From contig CAZITU010000003.1 of the NCBI GenBank assembly GCA_964542245.1, positions 17,888 to 81,887 on the forward strand: DNA of 64,000 bases. Direction: 5' to 3'. Shown piece by piece: positions 18,917-48,077 of the stretch (the first letter of the stretch is position 1; every line of letters begins with the position of its first letter). A program made the position numbers and the translations under genes. The notes beneath the pieces are model-generated. The model was not told the DNA's origin and made no database searches. It worked only from the letters and a program-made list of their open reading frames with translations. Origin of the DNA: an uncultured Nitrospirales bacterium (GTDB taxonomy: Bacteria; Nitrospirota; Nitrospiria; Nitrospirales; NS-4).

Positions 18917-21235
18917 TCAGCCACGGTAGGTGTCCAGCAATTCCTTATATACCTCGACGATCTGCTGCGCCCGGCGCGATGGGGAGAACGTCTCACGGAC
19001 GCGTCGCTCTCCTAGTTCACCCAATTCTGCCCTCATAGTCGGATTGCGTGATGCTTCAATCATAGCCCGTGCGAGTGCCTGGGCATTACCCGGAGGCACC
19101 AGCCATTTGGATAACCCATCCTGCATCACTTCAGGGATACCACCCACTGCCGTCGCCACGACCGGCTTGCGATGGAGCATGGCCTCCAGAAGCACATTGG
19201 GCAACCCTTCGCTCAGAGACGGAATGACAACCAGATCCAGCGCGGCATAAACGCGCGACATCTCGGCATGGTAGCCGGCAAACTTGACACAGCCTTCCAG
19301 TCCTGCCGCCTTGACAGCGGCCTGTAACTTCTCCAATTCCTGCCCCTCGCCGATCAGCACCGCTCCGGCGTTCGGCACCGCGCGCGCCACTTCTGGAAAA
19401 GCCCGCACAAACACTTCTTGCCCCTTCTCAGGGCTCAAGCGACCGATCACGCCGACCAATAGATCGTGAGGTTGGACTCCACACCTGCGCCGAAACTCCT
19501 CCCTCCCCGCATCCAGGCAATAGTCGTTGGGATCAATCGCGTTGTAACTCACCCGGATGCGCTCCCGGGAAACACCGGCACGTTGAAGAAGCCGACCTGT
19601 CGCCTCGGAGACCACGACGACCCGATCGGCCCGCTTCATGAGCCAGAGGTCCAGATGGTTATAAAAAGCGACCCGCCGGTTCTCGCTGGTGTATCCGTGC
19701 GCAAAGGCGATCCACGGGAGTCCCGTCAGGCGCTTGAGGCACCACGCCAGCAGGGCCGGTTTGTAGCCGTGGGATTGCAGGACGGTCACATTGTGATCCC
19801 GAACAACCTTCCACACGTGTCGAATCAGCCATGGATCATACCGGAACCGCTGCGGCAAGATCCGGACCTCAAACCCCCGGCGTTGGGCCTCCTCGATGGA
19901 AGGAGTCGTTGCGAAGGAAGGGACGAGGAACATGCCTAGGATGAATCGAACATCCTTATCCTTGGCATGCTCGACCAGTTGGAATAACCCGCGGCATGGC
20001 CCGCTCACCGCACCGGTGGCGATCAGCGCAAGGACGGAGGGCCGGGAATACACGTGCGTGCATTCTTCATACACTCGTTCAAGTCGTTGAGCGATGCATT
20101 CCCACTTGTAGTGCGCTTCGACCAATCGCCGCCCGGCCATCCCCATACGTCTCCGCAAATCGGGGTTCTCCAGCAGCCTGAGTATGTCGTCGGCAAACTC
20201 TCGAGGACGATCAGCCATCAGAATGTCCTGCCCTGAAACGGCCGCTATACCCTCGGCTCCCACAGCGGTGCTGACTACCGCCTTGCCCATCGCCATCGCT
20301 TCCAGGATTTTCAGCCGCGTTCCTCCACCTACTCTCAGAGGAACGACGACGACCGCGGCGGCCTGAAGAAACGGCCGCACATCCTCGACGAATCCGGTGA
20401 CATCCACCCGGCCGGGCCTGGTCAAACGCTTGACCTCCTCCGTGGGATGGCCCCCGACAATCTGAAATACGACATCCGGTCGCTTCGCCTGGACGAGGGG
20501 AAGGACCTCCGCACAGAACCACCGCACTCCGTCCACATTGGCGTGGTAGTCCATCCGTCCCACAAAGACGAGCCGGTTGCTCGGTATTGTCCCCATCCCA
20601 TCCGGCGCAAAACCGTCCACATCCACGCCGTTGGGAATCACGCTCACGCGCTCGACACCCGCTTGCTCTTGCAGCAGGCGCCGATCCTCCTCCGAACATG
20701 TCAGGCAATGGGTAAACCGCCCGCACACGTCCCGCTCATAGGCGGCTAGTTTCCTCCATGTGACCTCGGCGTAGGCGCGCTTCAACGGATGTCGCTCCTG
20801 CTCGGCATAGCGTTTCATCAAGAGAGATTCGATGTTGTGCAGATCCAGGACCGTATGGCACGGCAAGCCCAGGCAATACTGGGCCACATGGAGGCTCTCG
20901 GCCTGGACCACGTCGAACGACCGCTTGGTGAGGATCTCCCGCAGAAGATCCGTCATGCGTTGATCCCGGTAGTTGACCACCGGGAACGCGGTCGGCCCGA
21001 CAAGACCAAGGAGCAACATCCATGGGGAATAGCGCGGATCACGCGGGAGCACCCATACATCCGCGCAATAGGCCCGCAGTGCCTCAATCGCTTGAGAATC
21101 CTCGGTAGTCCGCATGAAGGAGATAAGCGAGACCCTATGGCGCTGCGATAGATTCCGGATCAATGAAAACACACGGATCTTCCAGCCGTCGGTCGGCGGA
21201 TATGGCAGATTACCGGTAATGAACAGAATTTCCAT
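18917..21235 (-). CDS. fusion of two GT4 glycosyltransferase modules
   Basis: 772 aa. The N-terminal half begins ILFITGNLPYPPTDGWKIR, the pattern typical of PEP-CTERM/EpsH1-associated sugar transferases. Each half carries its own E-x7-E region (KILEAMAMGKAVVST and LLEAMLHRKPVVAT). Confidence 0.8.
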   Translation of the reverse strand: MEILFITGNLPYPPTDGWKIRVFSLIRNLSQRHRVSLISFMRTTEDSQAIEALRAYCADVWVLPRDPRYSPWMLLLGLVGPTAFPVVNYRDQRMTDLLREILTKRSFDVVQAESLHVAQYCLGLPCHTVLDLHNIESLLMKRYAEQERHPLKRAYAEVTWRKLAAYERDVCGRFTHCLTCSEEDRRLLQEQAGVERVSVIPNGVDVDGFAPDGMGTIPSNRLVFVGRMDYHANVDGVRWFCAEVLPLVQAKRPDVVFQIVGGHPTEEVKRLTRPGRVDVTGFVEDVRPFLQAAAVVVVPLRVGGGTRLKILEAMAMGKAVVSTAVGAEGIAAVSGQDILMADRPREFADDILRLLENPDLRRRMGMAGRRLVEAHYKWECIAQRLERVYEECTHVYSRPSVLALIATGAVSGPCRGLFQLVEHAKDKDVRFILGMFLVPSFATTPSIEEAQRRGFEVRILPQRFRYDPWLIRHVWKVVRDHNVTVLQSHGYKPALLAWCLKRLTGLPWIAFAHGYTSENRRVAFYNHLDLWLMKRADRVVVVSEATGRLLQRAGVSRERIRVSYNAIDPNDYCLDAGREEFRRRCGVQPHDLLVGVIGRLSPEKGQEVFVRAFPEVARAVPNAGAVLIGEGQELEKLQAAVKAAGLEGCVKFAGYHAEMSRVYAALDLVVIPSLSEGLPNVLLEAMLHRKPVVATAVGGIPEVMQDGLSKWLVPPGNAQALARAMIEASRNPTMRAELGELGERRVRETFSPSRRAQQIVEVYKELLDTYRG

Positions 21236-22386
21236 TACCCGCCACCGTCCTTGCTTGTTTCCGGATCAGCTTCTTCAGCAGTCTTCTTTCGAGCGCGTAA
21301 CCGGTACAGCAGTCCTTTGGGCCAATCCAAAAACAACCGCTCTCCGTACGGCAAGCTCCGCTCGACCGCCCGGAAGGTTTGATACCGAACCGGGCTGAAG
21401 ACATAGTCCGCGTAGCCGTACCAGGAGACGATCTCGGCTCCCAAGCTTCGCTTGAACTGATACACTCCATAGCCCTTGTCGGTCTCTTTGGGAGGATAAC
21501 TGGTGCCGGTTCCGGCAAAATCATAGGTGGCGCACCCTAGCCCGATGGCCCACCGAATCATTTCCCACTGGACCGCCCAGCCGGCGTACTTCATGGAGTA
21601 ATCGCTGCTGAGATAGAGCAGCAACCCGACCGGGCCGAACCGCGAGGACATTCCGGCCGCAACCGGCTCGCCATCCTTACGCGCGATGAACAGGCGGCCC
21701 ATACCGCTCTTCTCCAGAGTCCAGAACAACGTATGAAAGTGACCCAATCCTCTAACCGGAATGCGCTTCTTGGCCCCCGTGTTCATCATCAGCCGATACA
21801 AGGTCTCAACATCCCGGTCGTCATGCCCCACCTCAATTGCCAAACCCCGTTTCTTGGAATGTCGAATCTTGTTGCGCGTCCTGGAACTGATCCGTGACAA
21901 AACGGCCGCTTCGCCGCCACTGATATCAAGGTGCATGTCATACTTCGGCCGATTCCAATAGGACCACTCTTGCGGGATGCGACGGAAACCTGCATGCTCG
22001 ATCCAGTCACCTCCTTCCGAGTCATCCGCCCGCACCCGTGGCTCGATCCGCCAAAAGACGCCCCCAACCCTCCGTGCGATTTCTCGAACGGCCGAGACCA
22101 GGACCGGAAGCACATTTTCCATGGGCGTGCCCGCGGACTGCGCCATCAACGGCCCGACGGGCGAATACAGCAGCGAGCCGACCCCGCCGGGGAGACGTTT
22201 GACCAATACCAATGCGGCTCCCACCCATCCGGCCTCATCAGCCACGGCCACGTAATACGGCTCCCATCCTTGGACCTTCCGAATCTGTCCCCACTCGTAG
22301 GACTGGTACAAACTTGAACCCTGTTGAGCAGAAACAAAGGCGTTCCAGTTCTCCCGCTCCGGATTCTGTACTAAGGCAAGGCTCAT
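21235..22386 (-). CDS. FemAB-family protein (PEP-CTERM-locus type)
   Basis: TRNKIRHSKKRGL and the C-terminal WEMIRWAIGLGCATYDFAGTG ... YQFKRSLG pattern, typical of Fem/MurM-like aminoacyl transferases. Confidence 0.75.
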   Translation of the reverse strand: MSLALVQNPERENWNAFVSAQQGSSLYQSYEWGQIRKVQGWEPYYVAVADEAGWVGAALVLVKRLPGGVGSLLYSPVGPLMAQSAGTPMENVLPVLVSAVREIARRVGGVFWRIEPRVRADDSEGGDWIEHAGFRRIPQEWSYWNRPKYDMHLDISGGEAAVLSRISSRTRNKIRHSKKRGLAIEVGHDDRDVETLYRLMMNTGAKKRIPVRGLGHFHTLFWTLEKSGMGRLFIARKDGEPVAAGMSSRFGPVGLLLYLSSDYSMKYAGWAVQWEMIRWAIGLGCATYDFAGTGTSYPPKETDKGYGVYQFKRSLGAEIVSWYGYADYVFSPVRYQTFRAVERSLPYGERLFLDWPKGLLYRLRARKKTAEEADPETSKDGGG

Positions 22387-24716
22387 CGTATGCCTCTCAT
22401 CACCTCGCGGAGATGGTACGCTGTCGCCTCCAGATGCTCTGGCTCAAGATCTTGGTGCACTTGCAACTCCAGGACGTGCTTGCGGAGGAAGGCAGTGTCC
22501 GGAAACTCTTCAACCGGCACACCTGGCGGGAACCAATTCCAAAAGCCTCCCGCGCAGATACCTCGCTCAATCAGCGCATTGCAGACCTGCTGGTTGTCCT
22601 CCACCAAGACCGGTAGAAACAGGGGACAGACCCCATCCGGCAACGTGGGCTGAAGGAGGGTCACGCCGCGAATCCCTCGCACCATTTCCAGCAAGGCCAG
22701 GTAATTCTCTCGACGCTTTCCGTAGAGCGTCTCGTAGTCCACACGCTCCAGAATTCTCCCAGACACCGGCGCCATCCCCCAGTCCACTTTGTCCGGCAGG
22801 AACTGCATGACCCCGGAGTCCACCCGTCTGAGCCCGGCCAGGCGCACCAACCGCCGCGCGGTCAGGGTGACCGAACTCTGCACCCGGCACGCCCAGGGAT
22901 TGCCGTGCGTCTTCATATGCTCCAACAACTTGCTGGTCAATTGGCTCGCCACGGAGTATCGAGAAGGCGGGATGGTCGCAGGGGGCATGACGAGCTTCGG
23001 ATCATTAAGGACTAAGACGCCGCCATTGGGGACCGGCAGGAACTTGGCCAGGCAGAATATGGCCACATCGCCGAACGAGCCAAGGGGCCGCCCGTTCACC
23101 GAGCTCCCGAATGCCAGGGCACAATCTTCGAACAACAGTAACCCGCGATCCCGACATAACGTCTCAATCTCGTCCATCGGCTGAGAGAAACCAAGGTAAT
23201 GAATGACATACACCATGCGGGTTCGTGCCGTGATCTTCTCCGTCAGGTCCTTGAGGTCCAACCCCATCTGCCGATCCACATGGACATACCGAAGTGGAAT
23301 GCCCCGATGCTGAAACGGCGCCACCTCCATCCCGTTGTTGTACGCCGGCATCAGGACTTCGTCGTTCTGCGTAAGTCCCAGCAGATCAATGGCATGCCAG
23401 ATGCCGTTCCGGGCGAAGTAATAAAACGCGGTTCGTGGGTCGTCCAGCGGAAACGGCCTGGGTTTCGCCCAACGGGGCCCCCACAGATCCCGAGTGGCCG
23501 TCGAGGGGAAGAACGGCACGAATCGTGTATCCGTCGCCTGTTTTACAGAGCCCTGTTTGTTGCGCTGAGCGCCTCGCACCATCTGCACCACCGCCTCGGG
23601 GAGTATCACCTTCGCCGCTTGACGAAGACGGCGCGCACCTTCCGTGGTCGCATGGTGCACCCATGCTCCGGTGTACCGGCGGGAGGCGGTCACGGTCACC
23701 TGGCCCCTCGCCCGATTTGCCCAACGGGATTTATACCCCTCGGCACCTCGCAAGAGGTCCACCTCGCGATCTCCCTTGAGAATGGCCTGTTCCACGCAGT
23801 GGCTCAGCAGGATCAGGCCCACGCTGTATTTGTGCCACCGCGGGTCATGGCCCGGCAGGTAATCGTGGACGCGCCCTCGATAAGCAAACTGATAGCGAGC
23901 CGCGACCGTGCCGCCGTCGGCATCCAGAAGCCACAATCGCAACCACCCCCGCTCGGCAAACCGGCGGCTCACAAGAAGGTGAAAGCGCTCGTACCGTTCG
24001 TCCGCAAAACTCCCCTGCTCGCCCAAACTTTCCCGTCTCATCTGATGGAGCCTCATGAACGAGGCCATCGCCTCCTCAAGACGATCCGTGTCCGTTACGG
24101 CTCGTACGGCCACCTTGGCCACGTCCTCAAGTGTCCGGCGATCGTGCCGGATCTCGCGCCTCGTCTTCGCGCTCAGTCCGGCAAGGAAGACGTCCCAGGA
24201 AGCTGGGAGCGAAATAAACGGGCAGGACTCTTCCAGGCGCTCTGTCCAGCGCAGCGTCTCTCCCCAAAGGTCCGGCCCCCGGCGAATCGCTCCGCATAAG
24301 AGACCTTCGGGATCCAGGTCTGCAAACTCCAGCGAGTCCCATTCCCCTTGATGCTCCTTGATCGCCGATTGCCACGCAGCGACGACTCGGCCCTCATACC
24401 CTGCTTCAGCCAGGCCGTCCAAATGGTCCGAGCACACCGCCGTGGACCCCAACAGGCGGAGCTGCCGGGGAAAAGGGTCCCCAGGGCGAGCCGCCGGCCC
24501 CGTAATCAAGGTCGGGAGCAGCCCTATCAGGCGATTGCCTTCACGTACGGCCACAAGAAAGAGACCGCCGCCCTCCCCGTACACCTCCCACCACGCGAGC
24601 ATCCACTCCGAGGTGAGAAAGACGGCATGCGGCCGGCAGCGGTCGAGCAGCGCGTCCCACTCCCGCCGCAAGCGTTCCAACTGTTCACTGGTCCTGACAA
24701 TCTCAACCGACAACAT
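22383..24716 (-). CDS. fusion: CelD/BioF2-like GNAT domain + DegT/DnrJ/EryC1-type PLP aminotransferase domain
   Basis: N-half: KTRREIRHDRR ... YQFAYRGRVHDYLPGHDPRWHKYSVGLILL ... DLLRGAEGYKSRWAN. C-half: aminotransferase-like with CLAKFLPVPNGG (candidate PLP lysine). Start at the ATG at 24716 (TAATG junction). Confidence 0.7.
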   Translation of the reverse strand: MLSVEIVRTSEQLERLRREWDALLDRCRPHAVFLTSEWMLAWWEVYGEGGGLFLVAVREGNRLIGLLPTLITGPAARPGDPFPRQLRLLGSTAVCSDHLDGLAEAGYEGRVVAAWQSAIKEHQGEWDSLEFADLDPEGLLCGAIRRGPDLWGETLRWTERLEESCPFISLPASWDVFLAGLSAKTRREIRHDRRTLEDVAKVAVRAVTDTDRLEEAMASFMRLHQMRRESLGEQGSFADERYERFHLLVSRRFAERGWLRLWLLDADGGTVAARYQFAYRGRVHDYLPGHDPRWHKYSVGLILLSHCVEQAILKGDREVDLLRGAEGYKSRWANRARGQVTVTASRRYTGAWVHHATTEGARRLRQAAKVILPEAVVQMVRGAQRNKQGSVKQATDTRFVPFFPSTATRDLWGPRWAKPRPFPLDDPRTAFYYFARNGIWHAIDLLGLTQNDEVLMPAYNNGMEVAPFQHRGIPLRYVHVDRQMGLDLKDLTEKITARTRMVYVIHYLGFSQPMDEIETLCRDRGLLLFEDCALAFGSSVNGRPLGSFGDVAIFCLAKFLPVPNGGVLVLNDPKLVMPPATIPPSRYSVASQLTSKLLEHMKTHGNPWACRVQSSVTLTARRLVRLAGLRRVDSGVMQFLPDKVDWGMAPVSGRILERVDYETLYGKRRENYLALLEMVRGIRGVTLLQPTLPDGVCPLFLPVLVEDNQQVCNALIERGICAGGFWNWFPPGVPVEEFPDTAFLRKHVLELQVHQDLEPEHLEATAYHLREVMRGIR

Positions 24717-25753
24717 TACCGTTCCCACCCGCCGAACAACCCGACCAATTGCGCGGCGAACATGGCCAGCGAAAACCGACCGAAGGGATCAGTACAACCT
24801 GCGTCGTTGATCTCAAGCCGACGCAGCGCGTACGCGTCGTGCCCCACGGGATTGGCCCCCCGCACCGTCGTGCAGGCCGTTTCAAACCCGGCCTGCTTGA
24901 CCATCTCCTGAATCTCCGGGTTCCAATCAGACCGAGTCCCGTTCGGATAGGCGAAGTGACGCACCGGTTCGCCGACCTCCTTCTCGATCCGGCGCTTGGA
25001 TTCGGCGATCTCCCACTCTGCCTCGGCACGAGTGATCCTCGTCAAGATCTTATGCGACACCGTGTGGGCGCCGATGGCGATCCCCGCCTTCCGCATCTCT
25101 CTCGCCATTTCCCAGGTCAGCATCTCCGTCTGAGGCTTTGCGGGCCCCTTCCACTCCAGCGCCTCCATGATGTCATGCATCACCTGCTGCCGCGCGCCAT
25201 CCGGCATCGTTTTCAGTCGGCCCTTTACCGCCTTCAGGCACGCCAAGCGGTCCGGTTCCGTCCGCAGAGGCCACGATTCCCATCCCAAGAATTTCAGGTC
25301 CACCGATTCCCGTGCCGTGGCCCACAACGCCTCACGGAGCTCTTCGGTCCAGAGCGACGCGTTTCCATCCACCGCCCCGACGGCCAGAAAGATCGTTGCC
25401 GGGATTTTGTGTCGTGTAAGGGCGGGTAAAGCCCTTGTGTAATTGTCACGATACCCGTCGTCGAACGTAACGGCGACCCCTCCCCGAAAGAGGCCTTCTC
25501 CTCTGAGCATCCGACCGACTTGCTCGAGCGGGACCATGTGATGCCTTTGAGTCAAATACCGAACCTGGGCCTCAAAGACCGCCGCCGAGACCGTCATGCC
25601 GTCGTCAACCCGGATATCACTGACGCGGTGGAATACCAGGATTCTCAACGAATCCCGCTTCGTCCGTTCAAGAAGGCGTAATACCCCCGTCCAGCGAAGC
25701 GTTTCGCTGACTACCCATTTGAGTGCGTTTCGGAGGCGGAAGGAGAGGGTCAC
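24716..25753 (-). CDS. polysaccharide deacetylase (NodB homology)
   Basis: ILVFHRV ... VAVTFDDGYRDNY ... IGAHTVSH motifs. GTG start directly after the upstream stop. Confidence 0.85.
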   Translation of the reverse strand: MTLSFRLRNALKWVVSETLRWTGVLRLLERTKRDSLRILVFHRVSDIRVDDGMTVSAAVFEAQVRYLTQRHHMVPLEQVGRMLRGEGLFRGGVAVTFDDGYRDNYTRALPALTRHKIPATIFLAVGAVDGNASLWTEELREALWATARESVDLKFLGWESWPLRTEPDRLACLKAVKGRLKTMPDGARQQVMHDIMEALEWKGPAKPQTEMLTWEMAREMRKAGIAIGAHTVSHKILTRITRAEAEWEIAESKRRIEKEVGEPVRHFAYPNGTRSDWNPEIQEMVKQAGFETACTTVRGANPVGHDAYALRRLEINDAGCTDPFGRFSLAMFAAQLVGLFGGWER

Positions 25754-27082: not shown

Positions 27083-27112
27083 AAGCTCTCTAGCCCTTCA
27101 CTTCATCCTGCT

Positions 27113-28919: not shown

Positions 28920-28940
28920 GCCGGGGCACCCCAGCTTGGT

Positions 28941-36923: not shown

Positions 36924-36969
36924 CGGCTTAAAGTCATGCCGCTTCGTTAGACCTCTTCTCGTCGAATAC

Positions 36970-38502: not shown

Positions 38503-38521
38503 TTAGATGCAAGACCCGTTT

Positions 38522-40281: not shown

Positions 40282-41798
40282 AACCGGTGCCCTCGGTAAG
40301 TCAGTCCCGCCTCTCCCAGATACGGAAAAACAAGTCGAACAATCTTGCCCTGCCGGGCAAAACCCATCCGCTCAATGCACTTTTGTATGCTCGTGTTGTT
40401 GATGTTCGTGATCATAAAGACCCGTTGAATGCCGTAGTCCCTCGCGACCTGACAGAGATTGAGAACCGCATAACGGTACAGCCACTGACCTCGAAACTCC
40501 GATAAGGTAAGGAGGTGCGTGATCTCGGCCTCACCGCCCTTCAGCTTCACATGGCGAACCGGTAATAGGCGGTCCTGTTCGACAGAAACGAGCGCACTCA
40601 GATGCACCAGCTTGCCCCCGACAAACACGCCGTAGGCACAATTGAAACCGAGCTTCCTGAAACGCTCGGCATGTTCTCCAAACTCGTCGCGTCTGGTCAG
40701 CAGACTCATCACAAATTCCTTCGATAGCTTCTCACTCCTCACGCCGTCGCGGGGTTCGGGCGGTGCCATACCGCTCGGGTTGGCCGCGTACACGGCAAAC
40801 CGCTCCACTCTCCCCAGCAAGCGTCGGAAGAAACGCATAGGACTGCTGCGGAGCAATCCAACGGCTGTTCCCAGTTTTTTTAGAAACCTATTCCCCAAGA
40901 GGTACTCCGCGCTTTCAAGCCCAACCGTCGCGGCACCAAATTCGGCCTTGAAACGCTCCAGCCCAGGGTTATGCGGATCCGCGCCGCCTAAGTTAAACAT
41001 CCCCATTGATTGCGCCCGCAAGGCGTTGGCGATCTCATAGACCAGGAAGTGCGAGGCGCCGCAAGCCATGCCTTGCGTGCTGGTGCCCGCTGATTGGTAA
41101 TACCCGCCTTTGTCGGTCAGCAGCACCAGAATGGACGACACCACATGACCGTCCAGAACCGCTTGGAACAGTTCGCCCGCGCCGCTTCGGGTCATAGCCG
41201 CAAAACTCTGGGTCTGGACGTCCTGGGGAACCACTTCTCCGCGGGCTTTTCGCCGCTCCATAGACTCTCGGACCAGACGGGCGTGCTCCTGACAGGCTTT
41301 CCCATCAACAGCGCGCCGCACCTGCAGACCGGCTTTTTGCCCGCGCTTGATATTCCGCTTATGGTTCGACGATAGCTGAGCCCATAGACCGGGCTTCTTC
41401 AGCTCCAGCACATACGCGCACCGCGTTCTCCGCGCAGTTTCACCACGCAGCGGGGGGATAGCAGCACTTGCAGAGGCGAAGCTATTGACTACGAGATACG
41501 ACACCCGAACCTTGCGGCAAAAACTCAGGAGCCCTTCCCAGAACACACCGCCATCGGGGAGCGTGGGGAGCGAGGGAATTTCGAGCGATCGGTTCAGGTA
41601 TCCGGATTTCATGAACGCCGTGCAGGCCGACACCAACCGACCGTTTTCTTGCAGCGACAGGACCCAGGGTCGGTATCCCAATGTGCGCTGAGCCTCGATG
41701 TAGGAAGATGTGTAGAAGGGATTGGCCGGCGCGAAAGCCGCCACCTCGGCGCAAAGCTCTTTGCAGGGATCATGCTCGGCATGGAATTTAAAGGACAT
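40266..41798 (-). CDS. fusion: FemAB-like domain + C-terminal GNAT acetyltransferase domain
   Basis: NHKRNIKRGQKAGL ... GASHFLVYEIANALRAQSMGMFNLGG ... RFKAEFGA (Fem-like). C-terminal YAVLNLCQVARDYGIQRVFMITNINNTSIQKCIERMGF (GNAT-like). Confidence 0.68.
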   Translation of the reverse strand: MSFKFHAEHDPCKELCAEVAAFAPANPFYTSSYIEAQRTLGYRPWVLSLQENGRLVSACTAFMKSGYLNRSLEIPSLPTLPDGGVFWEGLLSFCRKVRVSYLVVNSFASASAAIPPLRGETARRTRCAYVLELKKPGLWAQLSSNHKRNIKRGQKAGLQVRRAVDGKACQEHARLVRESMERRKARGEVVPQDVQTQSFAAMTRSGAGELFQAVLDGHVVSSILVLLTDKGGYYQSAGTSTQGMACGASHFLVYEIANALRAQSMGMFNLGGADPHNPGLERFKAEFGAATVGLESAEYLLGNRFLKKLGTAVGLLRSSPMRFFRRLLGRVERFAVYAANPSGMAPPEPRDGVRSEKLSKEFVMSLLTRRDEFGEHAERFRKLGFNCAYGVFVGGKLVHLSALVSVEQDRLLPVRHVKLKGGEAEITHLLTLSEFRGQWLYRYAVLNLCQVARDYGIQRVFMITNINNTSIQKCIERMGFARQGKIVRLVFPYLGEAGLTYRGHRLCLRS

Positions 41799-42984
41799 GG
41801 CCCTCTTGCCCTCTCACAGCCTGTTCGAGCATGTGCGCGTCAATAAAAAACTTGCAGGCCCAACTGAGGCACTCATAGGTCCCATACTCGCCCTGTACTG
41901 GAAATGAGCCTTTGATTGCGCCACGGGTATCCGGTGGTCCTTCGACTCTCATGGTGCGCCGAACAAAGCGATTGGCGGCATAGGCGGCCTCCCGAAATCG
42001 GATATCGCCCGTGTCCTGAAACAGCATCATCCAGCAGTGCGCAATCTGGACGCTCCCAGTGAGACATGCCCATGGGACCGCCCCACTCCAATCGGGATTC
42101 AGACGTCCGGGAAGAAAACCGTTCTCCTCGACAATACTCAGCAATCCGCTCGCAGTCCTCAAGGCCGCCTCTAACAGAGCCTTGTCATTATTGAACCGAT
42201 GCGCCTCAATGACACCGCGCAAGGCATATCCCAGCGTGTGGGTCAAGGGACGCGCAGAGTCCGACACGCAACAGTTGTCAAACCAGCCGTTCTCTCGCTG
42301 GTTGGACAATACCCACCGAATGTTTGCCAATGCCGCCTCTGCGTAAGTCTTCTCCGGCGCCAGCCTGGCCGCCTCCAACAGACCCCACGCCGCATGGGCT
42401 TCGTAGGCCTTTTCGCCCGGTGCAGCGAACGGAGTGGGGGCCTTGCGCCAGCAGCCGTCGGAATCTTGGGTCTCCACCAACCAGTCCGCTGCACGGCACA
42501 TAGGGAGACGATACGCCTCGCCGAACTCGCGAACCCCGCTCGCCAACCCGAGGAGAATCTGGCCCGTGTTGAAGGAAACAGGAATGACCGGTTTATCGCC
42601 GATGACTCCGCCTTGAAATCCTCCGCTCGGAAGCTGAATCGAAACCAGCCAATCGAGCATCCGTCTCGCTCGCCGACGCACGGCTTCGTCTCCCCGGAGC
42701 TTCGCGTAAGCGAGCATCGTCGGCACGATGTAGCCCGTTGTCTCGGGATAGGAAGCGCCCCAGCCGGTTACAAGGCTGAAGTGACGCGCCACCCCGCCGT
42801 CGCGGGAGGCCGAATGGTCTTGGGCGCGGCCGAGCCACGCTATGCCCTCGGCGATCGCTTGCTCGATGTCGGGATCGTGCGCCGGCAGTCCTAGCCGATC
42901 TCTGCGGTGCTCTGCCTTAGCCGCCTCAGGCAGCCGGTAATAACTGCGCAGTGCACGGATGGGTTGTAAGAGGCTTCTGACCAT
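41788..42984 (-). CDS. prenyltransferase / squalene-cyclase-repeat (alpha/alpha toroid) protein
   Basis: Four repeats of the W-L-x3-Q-x2-3-G-x-W/F type: LDWLVSIQLPSGGF, ADWLVETQDSDGCW, IRWVLSNQRENGWF, plus IAWLGRAQDHS. Confidence 0.65.
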   Translation of the reverse strand: MVRSLLQPIRALRSYYRLPEAAKAEHRRDRLGLPAHDPDIEQAIAEGIAWLGRAQDHSASRDGGVARHFSLVTGWGASYPETTGYIVPTMLAYAKLRGDEAVRRRARRMLDWLVSIQLPSGGFQGGVIGDKPVIPVSFNTGQILLGLASGVREFGEAYRLPMCRAADWLVETQDSDGCWRKAPTPFAAPGEKAYEAHAAWGLLEAARLAPEKTYAEAALANIRWVLSNQRENGWFDNCCVSDSARPLTHTLGYALRGVIEAHRFNNDKALLEAALRTASGLLSIVEENGFLPGRLNPDWSGAVPWACLTGSVQIAHCWMMLFQDTGDIRFREAAYAANRFVRRTMRVEGPPDTRGAIKGSFPVQGEYGTYECLSWACKFFIDAHMLEQAVRGQEGHVL

Positions 42985-42996
42985 GTATGTATTGAT

Positions 42997-44127
42997 TCAG
43001 AAGGCGCGACGCGCCGGCCGCTCCACCAGAATCGTTGCGATGCGCTCGGCTGCTCGGCCGTCCCACAATTCAGGCACTCGGCTTTCCCGGACTCCGCCGT
43101 TGAGCGCCGTCTCGCCGGCCTCAAGAATTCGCCGCCGACTGTTCCCAACCAGAACATTGGTTCCCTGTTCTACGGTTATCGGCCGCTCAGTGTTGTCCCG
43201 CAAGGTCAGGCATGGGATGCCTAACACGGTTGTTTCTTCCTGAATGCCGCCCGAATCGGTCAGGACCAGGCGCGCATCATTCATGAGCGAGAGAAATTCA
43301 AGATAACCCAGCGGATCCATGACGATCAGTCGAGTATCCTGATTTCCGAAGTCGGGCTCGTTAAGACCGATCAGGTGTTTGCTCCCGAAATTTTCAAGTT
43401 GCTGACGCGTCCGTGGATGGCAAGGGAACACGATCGGCAGCTCTTTTGTGAGCTCCTTGATCGTCTCAAGAATGCCGATCAGGGTCTCGGGCTCGTCCAC
43501 GTTGCTTGGCCGGTGAAGCGTCAAAATGCCATAGGACCGAGAGTGTAGACCCAGCTTTTCCCTGAATCCGCATGCCCGCGCGCGCTCCCGATGCTTGAGG
43601 AGCGTATCCACCATCACGTTCCCGACGAAGAAGATTTTCTCTTCCGAGACGCCCTCTCGGAGAAGATTCTCACGGGCGCTGGGCTCAGTCGTGAATAGGA
43701 AGTCCGATAGCTGATCCGTCAGAATCCGGTTCAGTTCCTCGGGCATCGTTCTGTCGAAGCTTCGGAGGCCCGCCTCGACATGGGCGACTTTGATTCCCAG
43801 CTTGGCCGCGCATAACGCAGCCGCGACTGTGGAATTCACATCGCCAAAGACCATAATCAGATCGGGCTTTTCTTGCATCAGTACAGGTTCTAACCGAATC
43901 ATGATCTGACCGGTTTGCTCCCCATGGGACCCTGATCCCACCTGGAGGTCCAGATCGGGCTTCGGAAGGCCCAGTTCCTCAAAAAACAAATGCGACATCT
44001 GCTGGTCATAGTGCTGACCGGTATGAACCAGCTTCACTGTTATCCCAGAATGCTTCCGCAGCGCCTCAATCACAGGCGCTGCTTTCATGAAATTCGGCCT
44101 GGCCCCGACCACGCACAGAACCTTCAA
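42997..44127 (-). CDS. wecB: UDP-N-acetylglucosamine 2-epimerase (non-hydrolysing)
   Basis: MKVLCVVGARPNFMKAAPV ... DSGGIQEE; full-length WecB/MnaA pattern. Confidence 0.9.
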   Translation of the reverse strand: MKVLCVVGARPNFMKAAPVIEALRKHSGITVKLVHTGQHYDQQMSHLFFEELGLPKPDLDLQVGSGSHGEQTGQIMIRLEPVLMQEKPDLIMVFGDVNSTVAAALCAAKLGIKVAHVEAGLRSFDRTMPEELNRILTDQLSDFLFTTEPSARENLLREGVSEEKIFFVGNVMVDTLLKHRERARACGFREKLGLHSRSYGILTLHRPSNVDEPETLIGILETIKELTKELPIVFPCHPRTRQQLENFGSKHLIGLNEPDFGNQDTRLIVMDPLGYLEFLSLMNDARLVLTDSGGIQEETTVLGIPCLTLRDNTERPITVEQGTNVLVGNSRRRILEAGETALNGGVRESRVPELWDGRAAERIATILVERPARRAF

Positions 44128-44154
44128 CGCGCGTTATCTCCTGACTCGCTACCG

Positions 44155-46611
44155 TTAATGATTCCCAAAACCGACGCAGCCAACCGGTTCACGCCTTTTC
44201 AGAAAGTGTATCTCGGATTCTAAACCGGGGGAGTGCAGATAAGTCCCGTCATACGCCACTGCCCTTCCCTTCGGCTTTACTTCGTAAGCCGCTATAGCCG
44301 CGTCCGTGCTCCAACCGCCGAAAGACACGGGGGATTCACCACGGTCTTTGGCGGGATTAAGAAGAACGCCGACAGAATTTTCTAAACCATCAAAACGAAT
44401 AGCGTAACCGCCGCTTGCCAATCGGTCTAAAACCAACTCTTGTGGCTCTGTCGTCCCGGAATTCTCCCCCGATAGTGTGATCAGAAAGGCGGAGGCCACG
44501 GGTCCCGGAACAGTTCTACGGATTCTGATCTGAGCCGTCGGGAGAAGTAGGCCATACGATGGAGAACGCCAGCCGCCGGGAGGATCATAGCTGCCCACGA
44601 GGAGTCGGGCCTCGGTGTGAGCATCTGTCAGCCACGTGATCTTTCCTTCCTTCAATCTGACTGTGTTGCCCTGACTCTGCGCTGCTTGATCGGCTAGGAC
44701 AAGGTTCGTTTCGTAAGTATGCGTCCCTGCACTTTCAGGAAACCAATCAACCACAAGTAGATTCCGCCCGACCAACAAAAACACGCGAACAGTCCGGCCG
44801 ATATGGTTCTGATAAGCATCGTGCTCTCCACCGACGAAGAACAGATCCCCTATTGCGGTTGCAAACAGCAAGCTCACATTGGGCCAGGTCTTATAGCCAA
44901 AATCCCCTGCGGGCGCAGCTTGCGAGAGACCGTCTGCGCTCGTCGTGTTGTGAGCCGTGGAGGATCTCAGAAAATCTCGCCAGACAATCCCCTTGGTACT
45001 CAAGGAAGAGCGATAGGTGTATGTGCCTGGATCAATCACAATCGGTCCGTGCTTGTCCCATAATAGAAACGACGAAATGTCCGCATGGTTGTGCCCGGCA
45101 AAATGCGGTTCTCCGCCTAACCGGCTGAAGTCACCGAACAGAAGCAGGTCTTCTGAGTCTATCCGGAAGTAACCCTCTTCCCAATAGACGTGCAGACGCC
45201 TATCATCGCCAGGCCGCGAGGGTATCGCCGCGCCAAGAGAGGATGCCAGTTTCTTGTACAGCGGATCGCCCAAGATCCATTTCGCGTCCCATTCCGCCGC
45301 GCGGCTCGGGCGGGACAATTGCGGCAACGAAAACAGCAGCGCTCCGAGATGCAGGGTGGGCTCCACATCTGAAAAGTCGGTCTCCGCCAGACGAAGGAAA
45401 TAGTGGTCATCTGAATCTCCGATCAAAAACACCTTCCCTGTCGGATCGGCAACGTCGCGAAGGTAGTAAAGTTGCGCCTTGATCCGCGCAAGAATGGCCT
45501 CGGGAACAGGCTCATTCAGTTTTCGTTTCGTGACGAGATATTGCAGATAGGCAGCGAGTAACAGCTTGTGGTAAGCCGGCGCATACTCCTTATGAACACC
45601 GGCCGTTGTGTATTGAAGTTCGAGTTCGTCGAGAATCCGCCGCTCAGCATAGTCCTTCCATGCCGGCGACTGTCTAAACTCGGGATAGCTGACGGCAAAA
45701 AAATACAGTCCCATGGCTGCCAGAATACCGTGGTTGTTCTTTTTACGTGGTTTATCGAGACGCTCCGACACAGCCCGCGCATGACCGTAAACGGCCTTTG
45801 TTAAAAGCGGGGAAAGTTCCCTCGCTCCATCATGCCCTGAAAGTATTCCATTTACCCACACAAGGCTGTAAAGGCGCAGGGACTCCTCCATTGCTGCTTC
45901 CCAGTTGACACTGTTATCAATTGGGTTCTCCGCCATCCAGGAACTGAGATGCCGTACGATGGTGTTGAGGTACTCCTTGTTACCCGTTAAACGGTAAGCC
46001 TGGGCGAGCCCGGTAAGATGTTGGAGTGTGCTAAGCTCCCATACGTAAATCACATCGTTTCCGCGCGATGGAAAGTCTCTCCAGCTAAAGTCCTTTCCCA
46101 ACGTCACCGTCCCTACACCAAAGGGGTTGAAGCGATCGCGGACGTATTCATCCGCCTGGCGCAGGATCTTCTTCAGTTCGCCTGGGAAACGCCGTTTCAG
46201 GTCGTCTAAGAGAGCAGGTATCGTTTCAGGATCGCCGAGGACCTTCGATGCGGCACAACTCACTCGGAACTTTTGGTACTCTTCCCACAACGTCCGATAC
46301 GAACCCCCGTCAACAGTCGTCCTAAAGGTCGCCGGACACAGCGATGAACCGGAGATTGCTGAAAAAATTTCACCATCAGTAACAATGATGGGCTTGAACG
46401 CCAACCGCAATTTAGTCGCATAGATCCCGCCTCGGGAGATCAACAATGATGGGACATCGTAGCGATCCATTAAGTAAAGGATTGCCAACGAAACAACCAC
46501 GAAAACGATAGCGAGATAGCGATCCATTAAGTAAAGGATCAGCAACGAAACCACCACAAAAACGATAACGAGATAAGGAAGAATCTTTCTTTGTTTTGAA
46601 GTCATCTGCAT
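44155..46611 (-). CDS. heparinase II/III-like protein with duplicated N-terminal membrane anchor
   Basis: FAGHNHADISSFLLW is the heparinase II/III signature, with an alginate-lyase-like N-domain. The N-terminus carries two near-identical 19-aa hydrophobic units. Lower-GC segment. Confidence 0.8.
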   Translation of the reverse strand: MQMTSKQRKILPYLVIVFVVVSLLILYLMDRYLAIVFVVVSLAILYLMDRYDVPSLLISRGGIYATKLRLAFKPIIVTDGEIFSAISGSSLCPATFRTTVDGGSYRTLWEEYQKFRVSCAASKVLGDPETIPALLDDLKRRFPGELKKILRQADEYVRDRFNPFGVGTVTLGKDFSWRDFPSRGNDVIYVWELSTLQHLTGLAQAYRLTGNKEYLNTIVRHLSSWMAENPIDNSVNWEAAMEESLRLYSLVWVNGILSGHDGARELSPLLTKAVYGHARAVSERLDKPRKKNNHGILAAMGLYFFAVSYPEFRQSPAWKDYAERRILDELELQYTTAGVHKEYAPAYHKLLLAAYLQYLVTKRKLNEPVPEAILARIKAQLYYLRDVADPTGKVFLIGDSDDHYFLRLAETDFSDVEPTLHLGALLFSLPQLSRPSRAAEWDAKWILGDPLYKKLASSLGAAIPSRPGDDRRLHVYWEEGYFRIDSEDLLLFGDFSRLGGEPHFAGHNHADISSFLLWDKHGPIVIDPGTYTYRSSLSTKGIVWRDFLRSSTAHNTTSADGLSQAAPAGDFGYKTWPNVSLLFATAIGDLFFVGGEHDAYQNHIGRTVRVFLLVGRNLLVVDWFPESAGTHTYETNLVLADQAAQSQGNTVRLKEGKITWLTDAHTEARLLVGSYDPPGGWRSPSYGLLLPTAQIRIRRTVPGPVASAFLITLSGENSGTTEPQELVLDRLASGGYAIRFDGLENSVGVLLNPAKDRGESPVSFGGWSTDAAIAAYEVKPKGRAVAYDGTYLHSPGLESEIHFLKRREPVGCVGFGNH
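46461..46517 (-). repeat. 57-bp tandem repeat, unit A (inside the heparinase-like CDS)
   Basis: agcgatccattaagtaaaggattgccaacgaaacaaccacgaaaacgatagcgagat. Confidence 0.9.
46518..46574 (-). repeat. 57-bp tandem repeat, unit B
   Basis: agcgatccattaagtaaaggatcagcaacgaaaccaccacaaaaacgataacgagat; 6 differences from unit A. Confidence 0.9.
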
Positions 46612-46644
46612 CTCGCGCTCCTGCCTAAAATGGAAGGGCGACTC

Positions 46645-47022
46645 TCACGGCGCCAGTGTGGTCCAGCGTTCTTGACGCCAATAGCCCCACCAGAGCACCA
46701 GCCCCGCTCCTACGCAATTTAACGCCACATCCGCCACCGAGGCATAACGGCCGGGGACAAAGGATTGGTGGTACTCGTCCACGATCCCGTACGCGATGGT
46801 GAGGACGGCAGCCAGCACCAACGGCCTGGTGTGGTTCAGCCTAAGCAGACTAACCACCCACACGTAGGCCAAGCCCCCGTAGAGCGGAATATGCAACAGG
46901 TTCTGGGTCGTCGGCGCCGTGAGCCAATCCATCCCCTTGATGTCGAGCGACCCGCCGGGGATGGAGGACAGAACCCAAATCGCCAGCATGTAGACGATCG
47001 GCGCAAGCAAGACGCGCATCAT
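46645..47022 (-). CDS. VanZ-like membrane protein
   Basis: DEYHQSFVPGR motif and 4 TM helices. Start at MMRVLLAPIVY; the tracked extension overlaps the upstream gene. Confidence 0.8.
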   Translation of the reverse strand: MMRVLLAPIVYMLAIWVLSSIPGGSLDIKGMDWLTAPTTQNLLHIPLYGGLAYVWVVSLLRLNHTRPLVLAAVLTIAYGIVDEYHQSFVPGRYASVADVALNCVGAGLVLWWGYWRQERWTTLAP

Positions 47023-47045
47023 GTGTCGAGGGACGAGAACTAGAC

Positions 47046-48077
47046 TCACGGGATTCCACGCACGATGGCGGGCCCCAGCCACTTGGTCAGCTTGAGCGGG
47101 AGGCGTCTCCAAACCTGAACAGCCGCTTGGTACTTGGCATTCTTCGGGCTCAGGTCCGGCAGCGGCTTGGAGTCCGGAAGCCAATACTCCCACGCAAGCG
47201 GCACCGGCCGGCCCCCCCACTGCTCTTTGAATTTGTAAGTCCCCTCCCCCGGCGTGCTACGGCCGAAGTCGAACCGTCGGAAGCCCTCTTTGATGGCATG
47301 CTGAATGAGTTCCCAGTATAGCAGGTTATTCGGACAAACCAAGCGATACTCCCGAAGAGACGCGGCCCACGGCACTTCCAGAGTGTCCCGGTAGGCCATG
47401 GCGAGACCGGCCGCGATGACGGTCCGGCCGGACAGCACGGAGAAGATACGGGTGGTCTCAGGAAAAACGCGAAACACTTCCTCGAAAAAGCGACGGCTAT
47501 ACACCGGCGTGCCCAGATCCCGCATGTTACGGGCGAAGACTTCATAAAAGTCCGGCAGGTCGGCGACGGCCCCGACTCGGACCGAGAGACCCGACCGTTC
47601 CGCTTTTCGAATCTGATTGCGGAGTTTGGGGTCGAACGCCTTCCATTGGGCCTCAATGGTGGGGGAAATCTCTAGAATCATCGTGACCTTATGTTGCTTA
47701 CGCTGGGTCACGAATGACCGCGGCCGCAGGTGGCGGGCTTCAAGATATGCAGCCCGGTGCTCCCCGGCACAGCATACCGCCTGACTCCAAAGCGCGTGCT
47801 CAATCTCTTCGCTATCGCCGAGGACCCCGCCATAGTTGACGAAGGGCAGGGATACGATGAAGCGCCCGAACAACCACGAATCCATGAGCACGAGAGGCAG
47901 GACGCCGACGACGCGGCCCTCTGAGAACGCGGCAAGGGGGACGGCCCGGTGGCCGAAGATTTCGGCTATGAGCGCGGGCCACTCATACCGGTGGTACTGG
48001 GTAGCCTGCGGGTGCGCGGCAACGTAAGCGTTCCATGCGACGCTGTTGTCCGCGACTGTGATTTCTGGGGACGCCAT
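47046..48077 (-). CDS. FemAB-family protein (PEP-CTERM-locus type)
   Basis: KLRNQIRKAERSGL ... NNLLYWELIQHAIKEGFRRFDFGRSTPGEGTYKFKEQWGG. Confidence 0.78.
   Translation of the reverse strand: MASPEITVADNSVAWNAYVAAHPQATQYHRYEWPALIAEIFGHRAVPLAAFSEGRVVGVLPLVLMDSWLFGRFIVSLPFVNYGGVLGDSEEIEHALWSQAVCCAGEHRAAYLEARHLRPRSFVTQRKQHKVTMILEISPTIEAQWKAFDPKLRNQIRKAERSGLSVRVGAVADLPDFYEVFARNMRDLGTPVYSRRFFEEVFRVFPETTRIFSVLSGRTVIAAGLAMAYRDTLEVPWAASLREYRLVCPNNLLYWELIQHAIKEGFRRFDFGRSTPGEGTYKFKEQWGGRPVPLAWEYWLPDSKPLPDLSPKNAKYQAAVQVWRRLPLKLTKWLGPAIVRGIP

Follow-up and report, generated by a model that had tools for sequence, protein, structure and literature searches.

Many environmental bacteria, among them those that form flocs and biofilms in wastewater treatment, carry exosortase systems, and we know of no identification, since 2006, of the molecule to which exosortase attaches its substrates. 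The closest described system is the Wbp/Vim pathway of Porphyromonas gingivalis and Tannerella forsythia, in which VimE, VimA and WbpS build a uronic linking sugar for protein anchoring, 2-N-seryl-3-N-acetylglucuronamide in the former species and 2-N-glycyl-3-N-acetylmannuronic acid in the latter (Veith et al. 2020, PMC7468200). The carbohydrate esterase family 4 (CE4) enzyme VimE is the proposed remover of the 2-N-acetyl group, VimA adds the amino acid, and the AsnB-type WbpS makes the uronamide; replacement of vimA in P. gingivalis by the T. forsythia gene changed the attached serine to glycine (PMC7468200). According to the same authors, VimA matches the NCBIfam family TIGR03019 and WbpS matches TIGR03108, and EpsH has these genes as neighbours in Nitrosomonas, Nitrosococcus and Desulfovibrio; they also raise the speculation that the compound which exosortase joins to its substrates is a product of VimA relatives (PMC7468200). 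Aminoacylation of an amino sugar from Gly-tRNA is described for Orf11 (PMC12945691), and amides of C6 carboxylates in surface polysaccharides have precedents in the ATP-grasp amidoligase domain of Campylobacter jejuni Cj1438 (PMC11800379) and in WbpS/WbqG (PMC7468200). Here we analysed a 64,000-nucleotide (nt) stretch of DNA from an uncultured Nitrospirales bacterium (contig CAZITU010000003.1, positions 17,888 to 81,887; hereafter the window), whose exopolysaccharide (EPS) operon combines a counterpart of the Wbp/Vim core with a dense set of Fem-type genes.

Judged by its gene content, the window holds a complete exosortase A (XrtA)/PEP-CTERM EPS operon. A single minus-strand gene array, in which the open reading frames (ORFs) overlap or lie a few bases apart, fills most of it, from about 58.1 kb down to about 0.7 kb. 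The 60 window ORFs were scanned against the Pfam and NCBIfam profiles with the curated NCBIfam cut-offs, and the XrtA-system markers XrtA, EpsI, PrsK (389.5 bits, cut-off 300), PrsR (602.9 bits, cut-off 502.6), TIGR03006 and TIGR03019 all exceeded them. The 5' end of the operon encodes a Wza-like exporter, a Wzc-like chain-length/tyrosine-kinase protein and a priming phosphoglycosyl transferase, while the PEP-CTERM genes form its 3' end. All the genes listed in an earlier note on this DNA were found in their places, on the minus strand and tightly packed. Identical DNA is present on the metagenome contigs ENA ERZ27245685 (99 kb) and JGI 3300009444, and the nearest named relatives are Nitrospiraceae metagenome-assembled genomes and Candidatus Nitrospira bockiana.

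By analogy, the core of the operon corresponds to the Wbp/Vim pathway known from Porphyromonas and Tannerella. Both systems combine a CE4 deacetylase, a Fem-like protein matching TIGR03019, a TIGR03108-type AsnB enzyme and a UDP-N-acetylglucosamine (UDP-GlcNAc) 6-dehydrogenase, with the equivalence of VimA to TIGR03019 and of WbpS to TIGR03108 taken from PMC7468200 rather than from direct alignment. In the window, the gene of the TIGR03019 protein (Fem4, Table 1) lies directly downstream of the TIGR03006-type deacetylase gene, and both products are full members of their families. Fem4, whose best sequence match in the PDB is the aminoacyl-tRNA-dependent peptide synthase Sba18 (9wqy, 1.6e-6), is predicted to transfer an aminoacyl group to the amine freed by this deacetylase. 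The AsnB-type enzyme keeps an N-terminal cysteine nucleophile (Cys2) together with its synthetase half; its predicted reaction turns a uronic acid into the uronamide. Since TviB/WbpA-like, TviC-like and WecB-type genes are also present, N-acetyl-hexosaminuronic acids are expected in the polymer, and the window offers candidates for WbpA (56868-58142), WbpE (the DegT protein 30269-31498), WbpD (the hexapeptide acetyltransferase 15393-16088) and WbpI (42997-44127). In the Wbp/Vim pathway, secreted proteins are joined by their C terminus to the amino group of the product, a 2-N-aminoacyl uronic sugar, and the pathway serves the sortase PorU of the type IX secretion system and anionic lipopolysaccharide, whereas the window operon has XrtA and EPS. 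The earlier note had regarded the substrate of the Fem family associated with PEP-CTERM loci as not established, a statement now outdated by the match of VimA to TIGR03019 and by its 2-N-seryl and 2-N-glycyl uronic sugars (PMC7468200).

Beyond the Wbp/Vim set, the operon carries four more Fem-type domains, a second deacetylase, two DegT domains, a PaaK-like enzyme and an ATP-grasp protein. The five Fem-type double-GNAT domains, which belong to Fem1, Fem2, Fem3, Fem4 and the N-terminal part of a fusion with a DegT aminotransferase, lie within 27 kb. FemAB and/or Acetyltransf_6 matches (for Fem4, TIGR03019) agree with the four FemAB-family proteins recognised in the earlier note, and its readings of the fusion, the two deacetylases, the second DegT protein and the PaaK/CapK-like enzyme were likewise borne out. 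Public gene callers give the fusion the same start. Because the five proteins share only 18-26% pairwise identity, they are best seen as old paralogs that were brought together, and a recent tandem duplication is ruled out by the same divergence. Fem4 alone belongs to TIGR03019: the cut-off is not reached by Fem1 (44.7 bits) or by Fem2, although residues 13-298 of the latter align with positions 1-276 of the 330-position profile and so cover both halves, and Fem3 and the fusion gave no match.

Alignment of Fem1 revealed full-length matches to FemX of Staphylococcus aureus (FemX_Sa, 6snr, 1.1e-22) and of Weissella (FemX_Wv, about 4e-15), with Fem1 residues 12-312 corresponding to FemX_Wv residues 12-305. 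In the printed alignment, K36, D108, R211 and F304-K305 of FemX_Wv are equivalent to R36, E115, R212 and F311-K312 of Fem1. Against the FemX equivalog NF047883 (UDP-MurNAc-pentapeptide-lysine alanyltransferase), Fem1 scored 92.6 bits and did not reach the cut-off of 500, so by sequence it is FemX-like and not a FemX ortholog. The Fem1 gene overlaps the upstream fusion gene by 4 nt and abuts a double glycosyltransferase family 4 (GT4) gene.

All five domains carry the motif aromatic-Lys-x-x-[F/W/L]-[G/A] (YQFKRSLG, FQFKSSFG, ERFKAEFG, YKFKEQWG and GYKSRWA), which reads FQFKSSFG in Fem2 and GYKSRW(A), with the pair Y-K, in the fusion. The lysine corresponds to Lys305 of FemX_Wv, the one reactive active-site residue of that enzyme, and to Lys329 of DhpH-C, which is essential (PMC12945691). 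The equivalent position is invariant in the families of the window proteins: K312 in 41 Fem1 homologs, F283 and K284 in 57 Fem3 homologs and the Y-K pair in 14 fusion homologs, while F283-K284 of Fem4 is at least 95% conserved in 70 TIGR03019 orthologs. A profile-profile comparison (hhalign) of the Fem1 and Fem3 families aligned the motifs over 320 columns with a probability of 98.5% (E 2.9e-15).

To compare folds, an AlphaFold2 model of Fem3 was used, with a mean predicted local distance difference test score (pLDDT) of 91.9; the whole Fem3 sequence has only a marginal relative in the PDB. The model consists of two GNAT lobes followed by a third GNAT, and in a Foldseek search of the PDB its best match was FemX_Wv (E 2e-14). 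The highest target-normalised template modelling score, 0.73, was obtained for Sba18 and Sbb17 (9wqy and 9wqw), whose structures are complexed with the amino sugar streptothrisamine and which are also the best PDB sequence matches of Fem4. FemA, FemX_Sa and MprF were further neighbours, and tandem GNATs binding acetyl-coenzyme A (acetyl-CoA) ranked lower (E 4e-10 or weaker). Sba18, Sbb17 and Orf11 are Fem-like enzymes that place glycine from Gly-tRNA on the amine of an amino sugar; their acceptor is a small-molecule antibiotic intermediate rather than a polysaccharide precursor, and the similarity is low, at E 1e-6 in sequence and about 14% identity in the structural alignment. The likeness to FemABX lies in the double-GNAT fold, in the catalytic lysine after an aromatic residue and in the full-length alignment of Fem1, and the presence of several paralogs in one pathway recalls the sequential FemX, FemA and FemB scheme (PMC12945691). 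The window genes differ from FemABX in that they are located in a Wzx/Wzy polysaccharide locus of a diderm and not in cell-wall synthesis, and in that a coiled-coil arm is absent: the Fem1 alignment passes over residues 237-333 of FemX_Sa, the staphylococcal coiled-coil insert, and the Fem3 model has no long helical arm. The earlier note had proposed this arm as a check on the Fem assignment. The check is not diagnostic, because FemX_Wv (335 amino acids, aa) itself lacks the arm and uses Ala-tRNA.

Table 1. Features of the window with the matches used for their assignment (all scores from the window proteins)
Feature	Position	Strand	Evidence
Three PEP-CTERM proteins, candidate exosortase substrates	731-1603; 2054-2989; 3365-4135	-	PF07589 at each C terminus
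EpsI	7981-8619	-	TIGR02914 150 bits (cut-off 42.8)
Exosortase A (XrtA)	8616-9494	-	TIGR03109 226.8 bits (cut-off 208)
Gln-dependent AsnB-type amidotransferase (WbpS-like)	12294-14162	-	TIGR03108 641 bits, full length (below cut-off 817); GATase_7 9.7e-46 and Asn_synthase; MCGIAG start
Fem1, FemX-type transferase, module A	21235-22386	-	FemAB 1.8e-28; Acetyltransf_6 1.6e-14; 6snr 1.1e-22
Fusion of CelD/BioF2-type Fem-like double GNAT (N-terminal) and DegT aminotransferase (C-terminal), module A	22383-24716	-	Acetyltransf_6 1e-32; DegT 9.8e-24
Second CE4 deacetylase, module A	24716-25753	-	Polysacc_deac_1 1.7e-27; TFDDG and HTVSH motifs
PaaK/CapK-like adenylate-forming enzyme, module A	25754-27082	-	PDB PaaK 9s3l 4.4e-22; DVU_1553 family 121 bits; CapK_C in precomputed Pfam
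S-adenosylmethionine-dependent methyltransferase, module A	27113-27901	-	Methyltransf_31/23/25/11, 1e-14 to 1e-16
Fem2, double GNAT, distant TIGR03019 paralog, module A	27867-28919	-	Acetyltransf_6 4.4e-20; FemAB 1.3e-7; TIGR03019 73.9 bits (below cut-off)
Stand-alone DegT sugar aminotransferase, module A	30269-31498	-	PF01041 8.3e-56; VEDAAQA Asp, SLSRGK Lys
Asn-synthase-like adenylating enzyme without glutaminase nucleophile	36970-38502	-	Asn_synthase 8.9e-10, from profile position 121 on; SGGRDS PP-loop
ATP-grasp ligase (weak assignment), module B	38971-40281	-	ATPgrasp_Ter 26.7 bits (cut-off 29.1); PRK12767-like 52.7 bits; Ddl 8evx 6.7e-4
Fem3, Fem-type double GNAT (residues 1 to ~300) and third acetyltransferase-type GNAT (~330-510), module B	40266-41798	-	N-half Acetyltransf_6 1.2e-11, FemAB 1.5e-7; C-half Acetyltransf_1 1.7e-5
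Alpha/alpha-toroid protein (SQHop_cyclase_C-like), module B	41788-42984	-	PF13243 3.7e-8; weak GH127 and Pec_lyase matches
Non-hydrolysing UDP-HexNAc 2-epimerase (WecB/WbpI-type; HexNAc, N-acetylhexosamine)	42997-44127	-	TIGR00236 353 bits (cut-off 210)
Fem4, core double-GNAT protein (TIGR03019, VimA-like)	47046-48077	-	TIGR03019 389.4 bits (cut-off 260.35), residues 14-343 to positions 2-330 of 330
CE4 polysaccharide deacetylase (VimE-like, XrtA-system type)	48095-48982	-	TIGR03006 390 bits (cut-off 276); Polysacc_deac_1 and DUF3473
UDP-GlcNAcA 4-epimerase (TviC-like)	55795-57048	-	NF011728 456 bits; Epimerase 1.8e-58
UDP-GlcNAc 6-dehydrogenase (TviB/WbpA-like), expected to supply HexNAc-uronic acid	56868-58142	-	NF011729 TviB 477 bits; TIGR03026 399 bits (cut-off 190)
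tRNA-Arg-CCT, outside the operon	58295-58371	+	
tRNA-Lys-TTT, outside the operon	61722-61797	-	
tRNA-Ala-GGC, outside the operon	63342-63417	+	

To place the Fem-type genes in a wider context, 80 loci with a TIGR03019 relative and up to 10 kb of flank on each side were collected from Nitrospirota, Acidobacteriota, Gemmatimonadota, Desulfobacterota, Pseudomonadota and other phyla, and their ORFs were searched with all the window proteins. A TIGR03006-type deacetylase was found in 60 of these loci, in 58 of them upstream of the TIGR03019 gene with the same orientation, and in about 41 as its immediate neighbour; the pair is conserved across phyla. In 77 of the 80 loci the TIGR03019 gene is the single Fem-like ORF, two apparent extra ORFs are fragments of the same gene, and a true second paralog is present in one locus only (L083). 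The window has two Fem-like proteins in the span covered by the comparison and five domains in 27 kb, so its density of Fem domains exceeds that of the related loci.

The additional Fem-type genes are arranged in two groups. Module A consists of the stand-alone DegT protein, Wzy, Fem2, a methyltransferase, the PaaK/CapK-like enzyme, the second deacetylase, the Fem::DegT fusion and the FemX-type protein Fem1, and module B of an alpha/alpha-toroid protein, the Fem::GNAT protein Fem3 and the ATP-grasp protein, with an Asn-synthase-like enzyme (36970-38502) nearby. By its gene content, the variable centre of the operon has gained these two accessory modules, which repeat the logic of the core and are what this locus adds to the published core. 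Module A is kept gene for gene, at 68% identity, on a 149-kb contig (L008) in the order DegT, Wzy, Fem2, methyltransferase, CapK-like enzyme, deacetylase, Fem::DegT, FemX-like protein and GT4. Genes of the Fem1 and Fem2 types also occur together in L007, separated there by a hexapeptide acetyltransferase gene. The Fem1 homolog of N. bockiana lies between a hexapeptide acetyltransferase gene and GT4 genes, next to Wzy and DegT genes, and Fem1 homologs are found inside Wzx/Wzy loci in L005, L007 and L008.

Homologs of the Fem::DegT fusion are rare, with 16 found among 5.8 billion proteins. One of them (P0060) is a triple fusion of CE4 deacetylase, Fem-like domain and DegT, in which the deacetylase encoded in the window by its own gene upstream has become the N-terminal part, and another (P0067) has the reversed order DegT::Fem-like. 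Independent fusions of a deacetylase and of a DegT aminotransferase to a Fem-like domain indicate that these enzymes share a substrate, a sugar amine. The DegT half of the window fusion keeps the pyridoxal-phosphate-binding Lys (in FCLAKF, position 559) and the conserved Asp (in FEDCA, position 534), and in Foldseek its model was aligned over about 360 columns with the sugar aminotransferases TlmJ, DesV, WecE, ArnB and PseC; the N-terminal domain was modelled with high confidence. The contig of the triple fusion (L009, fusion at 10001-13387) carries a methyltransferase homolog upstream of it. The same contig has two consecutive AsnB-like genes with weak glutaminase matches, and a TIGR03019-type gene (17202-18245, 8e-82) stands at its end, so the triple fusion coexists with the core Fem protein and does not replace it.

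Among the best matches of the fusion N-domain are many tandem Fem::Fem proteins, one protein with an added hexapeptide acetyltransferase and one Fem::GNAT protein. The Fem3 family (198 matches) likewise occurs alone or fused to a C-terminal GNAT, and it recurs beside an alpha/alpha-toroid protein and an ATP-grasp protein in L091 to L093. The repeated pairing of a separate acetyltransferase with a Fem-like domain fits a sequence in which an amino acid is added and its amine is then capped, and Fem3 is predicted to aminoacylate and then to N-cap through its C-terminal GNAT. At residues ~436-445 of Fem3, in this GNAT, FRGQWLY stands in place of the family consensus FRGxGxY, with tryptophan instead of the second glycine in the putative CoA-binding loop; to judge from this substitution, this organism may have a capping domain that is altered or impaired. 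Close relatives of the fusion N-domain (P0191, P0192, P0195, P0199, P0200, P0202, P0203, P0211 and P0234) are often tandem Fem-like::Fem-like proteins, 750-950 aa long. One relative also contains a response-regulator receiver and a GGDEF diguanylate cyclase, an architecture that would tie the family to cyclic di-GMP signalling. The toroid gene stands directly upstream of Fem3-type genes on four unrelated contigs (in the window, in L092 at 4598-5917, in L093 at 6827-8011 and in L091 at 6832-8001); this neighbour is clear in L092 and L093 and probable in L091. The toroid and Fem3-type pair is often accompanied by an ATP-grasp gene and sometimes by a metallophosphatase gene.

The ATP-grasp protein, whose gene is found beside Fem-like genes in L092, L010 and L005, is predicted from sequence to be a carboxylate-amine ligase; the gene described in the earlier note is present, with a family call that falls below the ATPgrasp_Ter cut-off. 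Of the two AsnB-type enzymes which that note had placed within 21235-48077, the complete AsnB (12294-14162) lies outside this interval and 36970-38502 has the synthetase half only. The latter shows no MCG start, N-terminal cysteine, GATase match or PDB match, and may act as an amide ligase with ammonia or a different amine as substrate. The window pairs the synthesis of HexNAc-uronic acid with ATP-grasp and AsnB-type enzymes, for which Cj1438 and WbpS/WbqG are precedents by likeness of role; the C-terminal domain of Cj1438 is a TupA-like ATP-grasp, whereas the window protein is nearer to the PRK12767 and ATPgrasp_Ter types. The PaaK/CapK-like enzyme is predicted, again from its family, to activate a carboxylic acid.

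Taken together, the sequence, model and analogy data make it rather probable that the Fem-type enzymes of this operon attach amino acids to sugar amines. The data themselves show which genes are present and to which families they belong, the conserved catalytic residues, the similar folds, the fusions and the kept gene order. We infer, in part in the following scheme, which sugars act as acceptors and which amino acids are attached, the use of tRNA as donor, the sequence of the steps, any peptide chains and the exosortase-acceptor role. On the cytoplasmic face, hexosaminic or hexosaminuronic sugars linked to UDP or to undecaprenyl diphosphate would gain a free amine, either through a CE4 deacetylase (48095-48982 or 24716-25753) or through a DegT aminotransferase (30269-31498 or the C-terminal part of 22383-24716). 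A Fem-type enzyme would then move an aminoacyl group to the sugar amine, with aminoacyl-tRNA as the most probable donor, and further Fem-type enzymes or the ATP-grasp protein may lengthen the substituent. The C-terminal GNAT of Fem3 and the methyltransferase (27113-27901) may cap it by N-acetylation and methylation, while the AsnB enzyme (12294-14162), the synthetase (36970-38502) and possibly the ATP-grasp protein would turn uronic carboxyls into amides. Wzx and Wzy would finally export and polymerise the decorated repeat unit. The earlier note is upheld in its general reading, the exposure of amines and the aminoacyl or amide decoration of sugars, by the conservation of the lysine, the fold neighbours and the fusions; its tRNA-dependent and stepwise additions did not gain the same backing. 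The interpretation is plausible, and its core idea has already been published (Veith et al. 2020).

By analogy, we consider aminoacyl-tRNA a probable donor, at a somewhat lower confidence than the attachment of amino acids itself. This donor is backed indirectly, since the nearest characterised relatives of the Fem-type proteins are all tRNA-dependent and the proteins are predicted to be cytoplasmic; a hydropathy scan revealed neither transmembrane segments nor signal peptides in the tailoring enzymes, which fits a cytoplasmic donor. No dedicated tRNA or aminoacyl-tRNA synthetase genes were found inside the operon, and its intergenic gaps, of at most 210 nt, are too short for a carrier protein or small ORF serving another acyl donor.

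Several observations weigh against this interpretation. The word tRNA is absent from the Wbp/Vim paper, which does not name the amino-acid donor of VimA (PMC7468200), and no published chemistry, whether of this polymer or of another XrtA-type EPS, was found in the literature searched. In comparison with the Wbp/Vim pathway, Pfam and NCBIfam scans of the window found no WbpB-type (GFO/IDH/MocA) oxidoreductase, which may be encoded in another part of the genome, and the window has no clear 4,6-dehydratase to give the DegT enzymes a keto-sugar. Three assignments are insecure: the ATP-grasp family is called from sub-threshold scores, the C-terminal GNAT of Fem3 from a weak Acetyltransf_1 match (1.7e-5), in agreement with the extra GNAT domain of the earlier note, and the DegT half of the fusion was modelled poorly, with pLDDT below 50 over long stretches and from 14 sequences only. 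Acetyltransf_6 is, moreover, a very large and almost entirely uncharacterised family (17,271 cluster representatives at E <=1e-3 in a full-library search with the fusion N-domain), an acetyl-CoA-binding tandem GNAT (2wpw) is also a significant structural neighbour of the Fem3 model, and the PaaK-like enzyme of module A could provide an acyl-CoA or acyl-AMP donor instead.

The last points belong to the strongest alternative, that the Fem-like proteins are ordinary N-acyl or N-acetyl transferases which depend on acyl-CoA or acyl-AMP and re-acylate sugars, once these are deacetylated or transaminated, with acetyl or a different small acid, perhaps one activated by the PaaK/CapK-like enzyme, and without aminoacyl-tRNA. 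We regard it as rather improbable, although the Pfam family is named Acetyltransf_6, homologs are annotated as GNAT or RimJ/RimL proteins, the PaaK-like gene lies inside module A and is conserved with it, a second acetyl-CoA tandem GNAT (VipF) was significant in Foldseek beside 2wpw, and a FemX-like GNAT together with a deacetylase in the Pseudomonas Pap cluster has been interpreted in the literature as acetylation (PMC7716237). Removal of an acetyl group followed by its restoration would be futile, and in the Vim system serine or glycine is added, with VimA deciding which (PMC7468200). Every top-ranking neighbour in sequence and structure uses aminoacyl-tRNA, the Fem catalytic lysine is conserved throughout, and the canonical GNAT motif for CoA pyrophosphate, [QR]xxGx[GA], was found nowhere in the five Fem-like proteins. 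The repeated fusion or adjacency of Fem-like domains to separate GNAT or hexapeptide acetyltransferases would also be redundant if these domains acetylated by themselves.

Aminoacylation of a non-glycan target, either PEP-CTERM proteins, at N termini or side chains as by L/F- or R-transferases, or a membrane lipid, as by MprF, is very unlikely. PEP-CTERM proteins are encoded in the locus, and the structural neighbours include MprF along with further tRNA-dependent double-GNAT enzymes; the CE4 deacetylase and DegT fusions nevertheless point to sugar amines, the VimA product is a sugar-linked amino acid (PMC7468200), and the Fem-like proteins have no membrane domain. Least probable of all is that Fem1 is a true peptidoglycan-branching FemX, acting on UDP-MurNAc-pentapeptide or lipid II and only incidentally placed in the EPS operon: its best matches are peptidoglycan FemX proteins, NCBI names the N. 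bockiana homolog 'lipid II:glycine glycyltransferase FemX', the nucleotide-substrate-binding residues of FemX_Wv (among which we take K36 and R211 to be substrate-binding positions) have conservative equivalents in Fem1, and one homolog of 45% identity (P0044) lies outside any EPS locus, but the overlap with the fusion gene and the abutting double GT4 gene put Fem1 inside the operon, the homologs in L005, L007 and L008 are embedded in Wzx/Wzy loci by Wzy, DegT and acetyltransferase genes, and the equivalog cut-off is missed by a wide margin.

Returning to aminoacylated sugars as the preferred product, the idea that the core product serves as the exosortase acceptor is possible, by analogy with the Wbp/Vim linking sugar, yet we hold it as tentative. 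It is not new, having been proposed by Veith et al. (2020); no later paper linking VimA to exosortase was found in the literature searched, papers that tie FemAB to O-antigen, capsule or EPS clusters do so at the level of annotation there, and the original exosortase paper (Haft et al. 2006), which was checked for an analogy between Fem proteins and sortase, does not mention Fem proteins. An unlikely extension, well below the acceptor idea in probability, is that the five Fem-type modules, the ATP-grasp protein and the capping acetyltransferase and methyltransferase attach a short branching peptide to an amino-uronic sugar in the lipid-linked repeat unit of the EPS, as FemX, FemA and FemB build pentaglycine on lipid II, and that its free amine is the nucleophile with which exosortase A joins cleaved PEP-CTERM C termini. 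Such a branch would constitute a diderm, polysaccharide-based equivalent of sortase anchoring to peptidoglycan, with strain-variable 'anchor peptides'.

The trio of deacetylase, Fem-like protein and AsnB is the best lead to the exosortase acceptor molecule, and this locus presents it beside unusually rich paralogous modules and informative fusions, which tell which enzymes share a substrate. Fem1, with its equivalents of FemX_Wv K36, D108, R211 and F304-K305, and Fem4 are concrete candidate proteins for tests. If the Fem-like enzymes use aminoacyl-tRNA on polysaccharide precursors, exopolysaccharides would join peptidoglycan, lipids and antibiotics as targets of tRNA-dependent non-ribosomal aminoacylation, and the formation of the N-aminoacyl sugars of many surface glycans would be explained.

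Other features of the window concern the history and annotation of the operon. The ORF 38522-38974 (-), of 150 aa, is what is left of a second wzx flippase gene: over the first ~200 nt, counted from its ATG, it shares about 75-80% identity with the 5' end of the intact wzx (34096-35568, -), and beyond that the similarity ends. The GC content falls to 0.49-0.51 at 32-38 kb, and together the remnant and this dip suggest that the variable centre of the operon is a mosaic formed by recombination between two EPS cassettes. In the segment of lowest GC content, between an FkbM methyltransferase gene and the DegT gene, lies an 'uncharacterised nucleotidyltransferase' (31572-33137, -; 521 aa) with an NTP_transf_5 match (4.4e-51) and no NCBIfam match. 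The ORF 16298-16837 (-; 179 aa) has no Pfam or NCBIfam match and carries left-handed beta-helix hexapeptide-like repeats (IGDDVTISG..IGTGSYIG..IGRHVLIAN); it adjoins the hexapeptide acetyltransferase gene 15393-16088 (-) and is either a second acetyltransferase or part of a split one. Two large lyase-like proteins, one heparinase II/III-like (44155-46611, -; 818 aa) and one PcRGLX-like (9497-12448, -; 983 aa), may trim or process the polymer or act as epimerases.

Two listed ORF starts are too early. That of the methyltransferase ORF 16866-18101 (-) produces a 343-nt overlap with the upstream glycosyltransferase family 2 gene, and gene callers give a protein of 298 aa; that of the VanZ-like ORF 46645-47220 (-) produces a 175-nt overlap with the 3' end of the TIGR03019 gene. 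The three tRNA genes of Table 1 are located near the 5' end of the operon, the tRNA-Arg gene about 150 nt upstream of the first gene; their position beside the operon is probably incidental, or it may mark an integration hotspot. Beyond the 5' end, on the opposite strand, lie a squalene/phytoene synthase gene (59999-60892, +; 2.7e-82) and a periplasmic-binding-protein gene, both unrelated to the operon.

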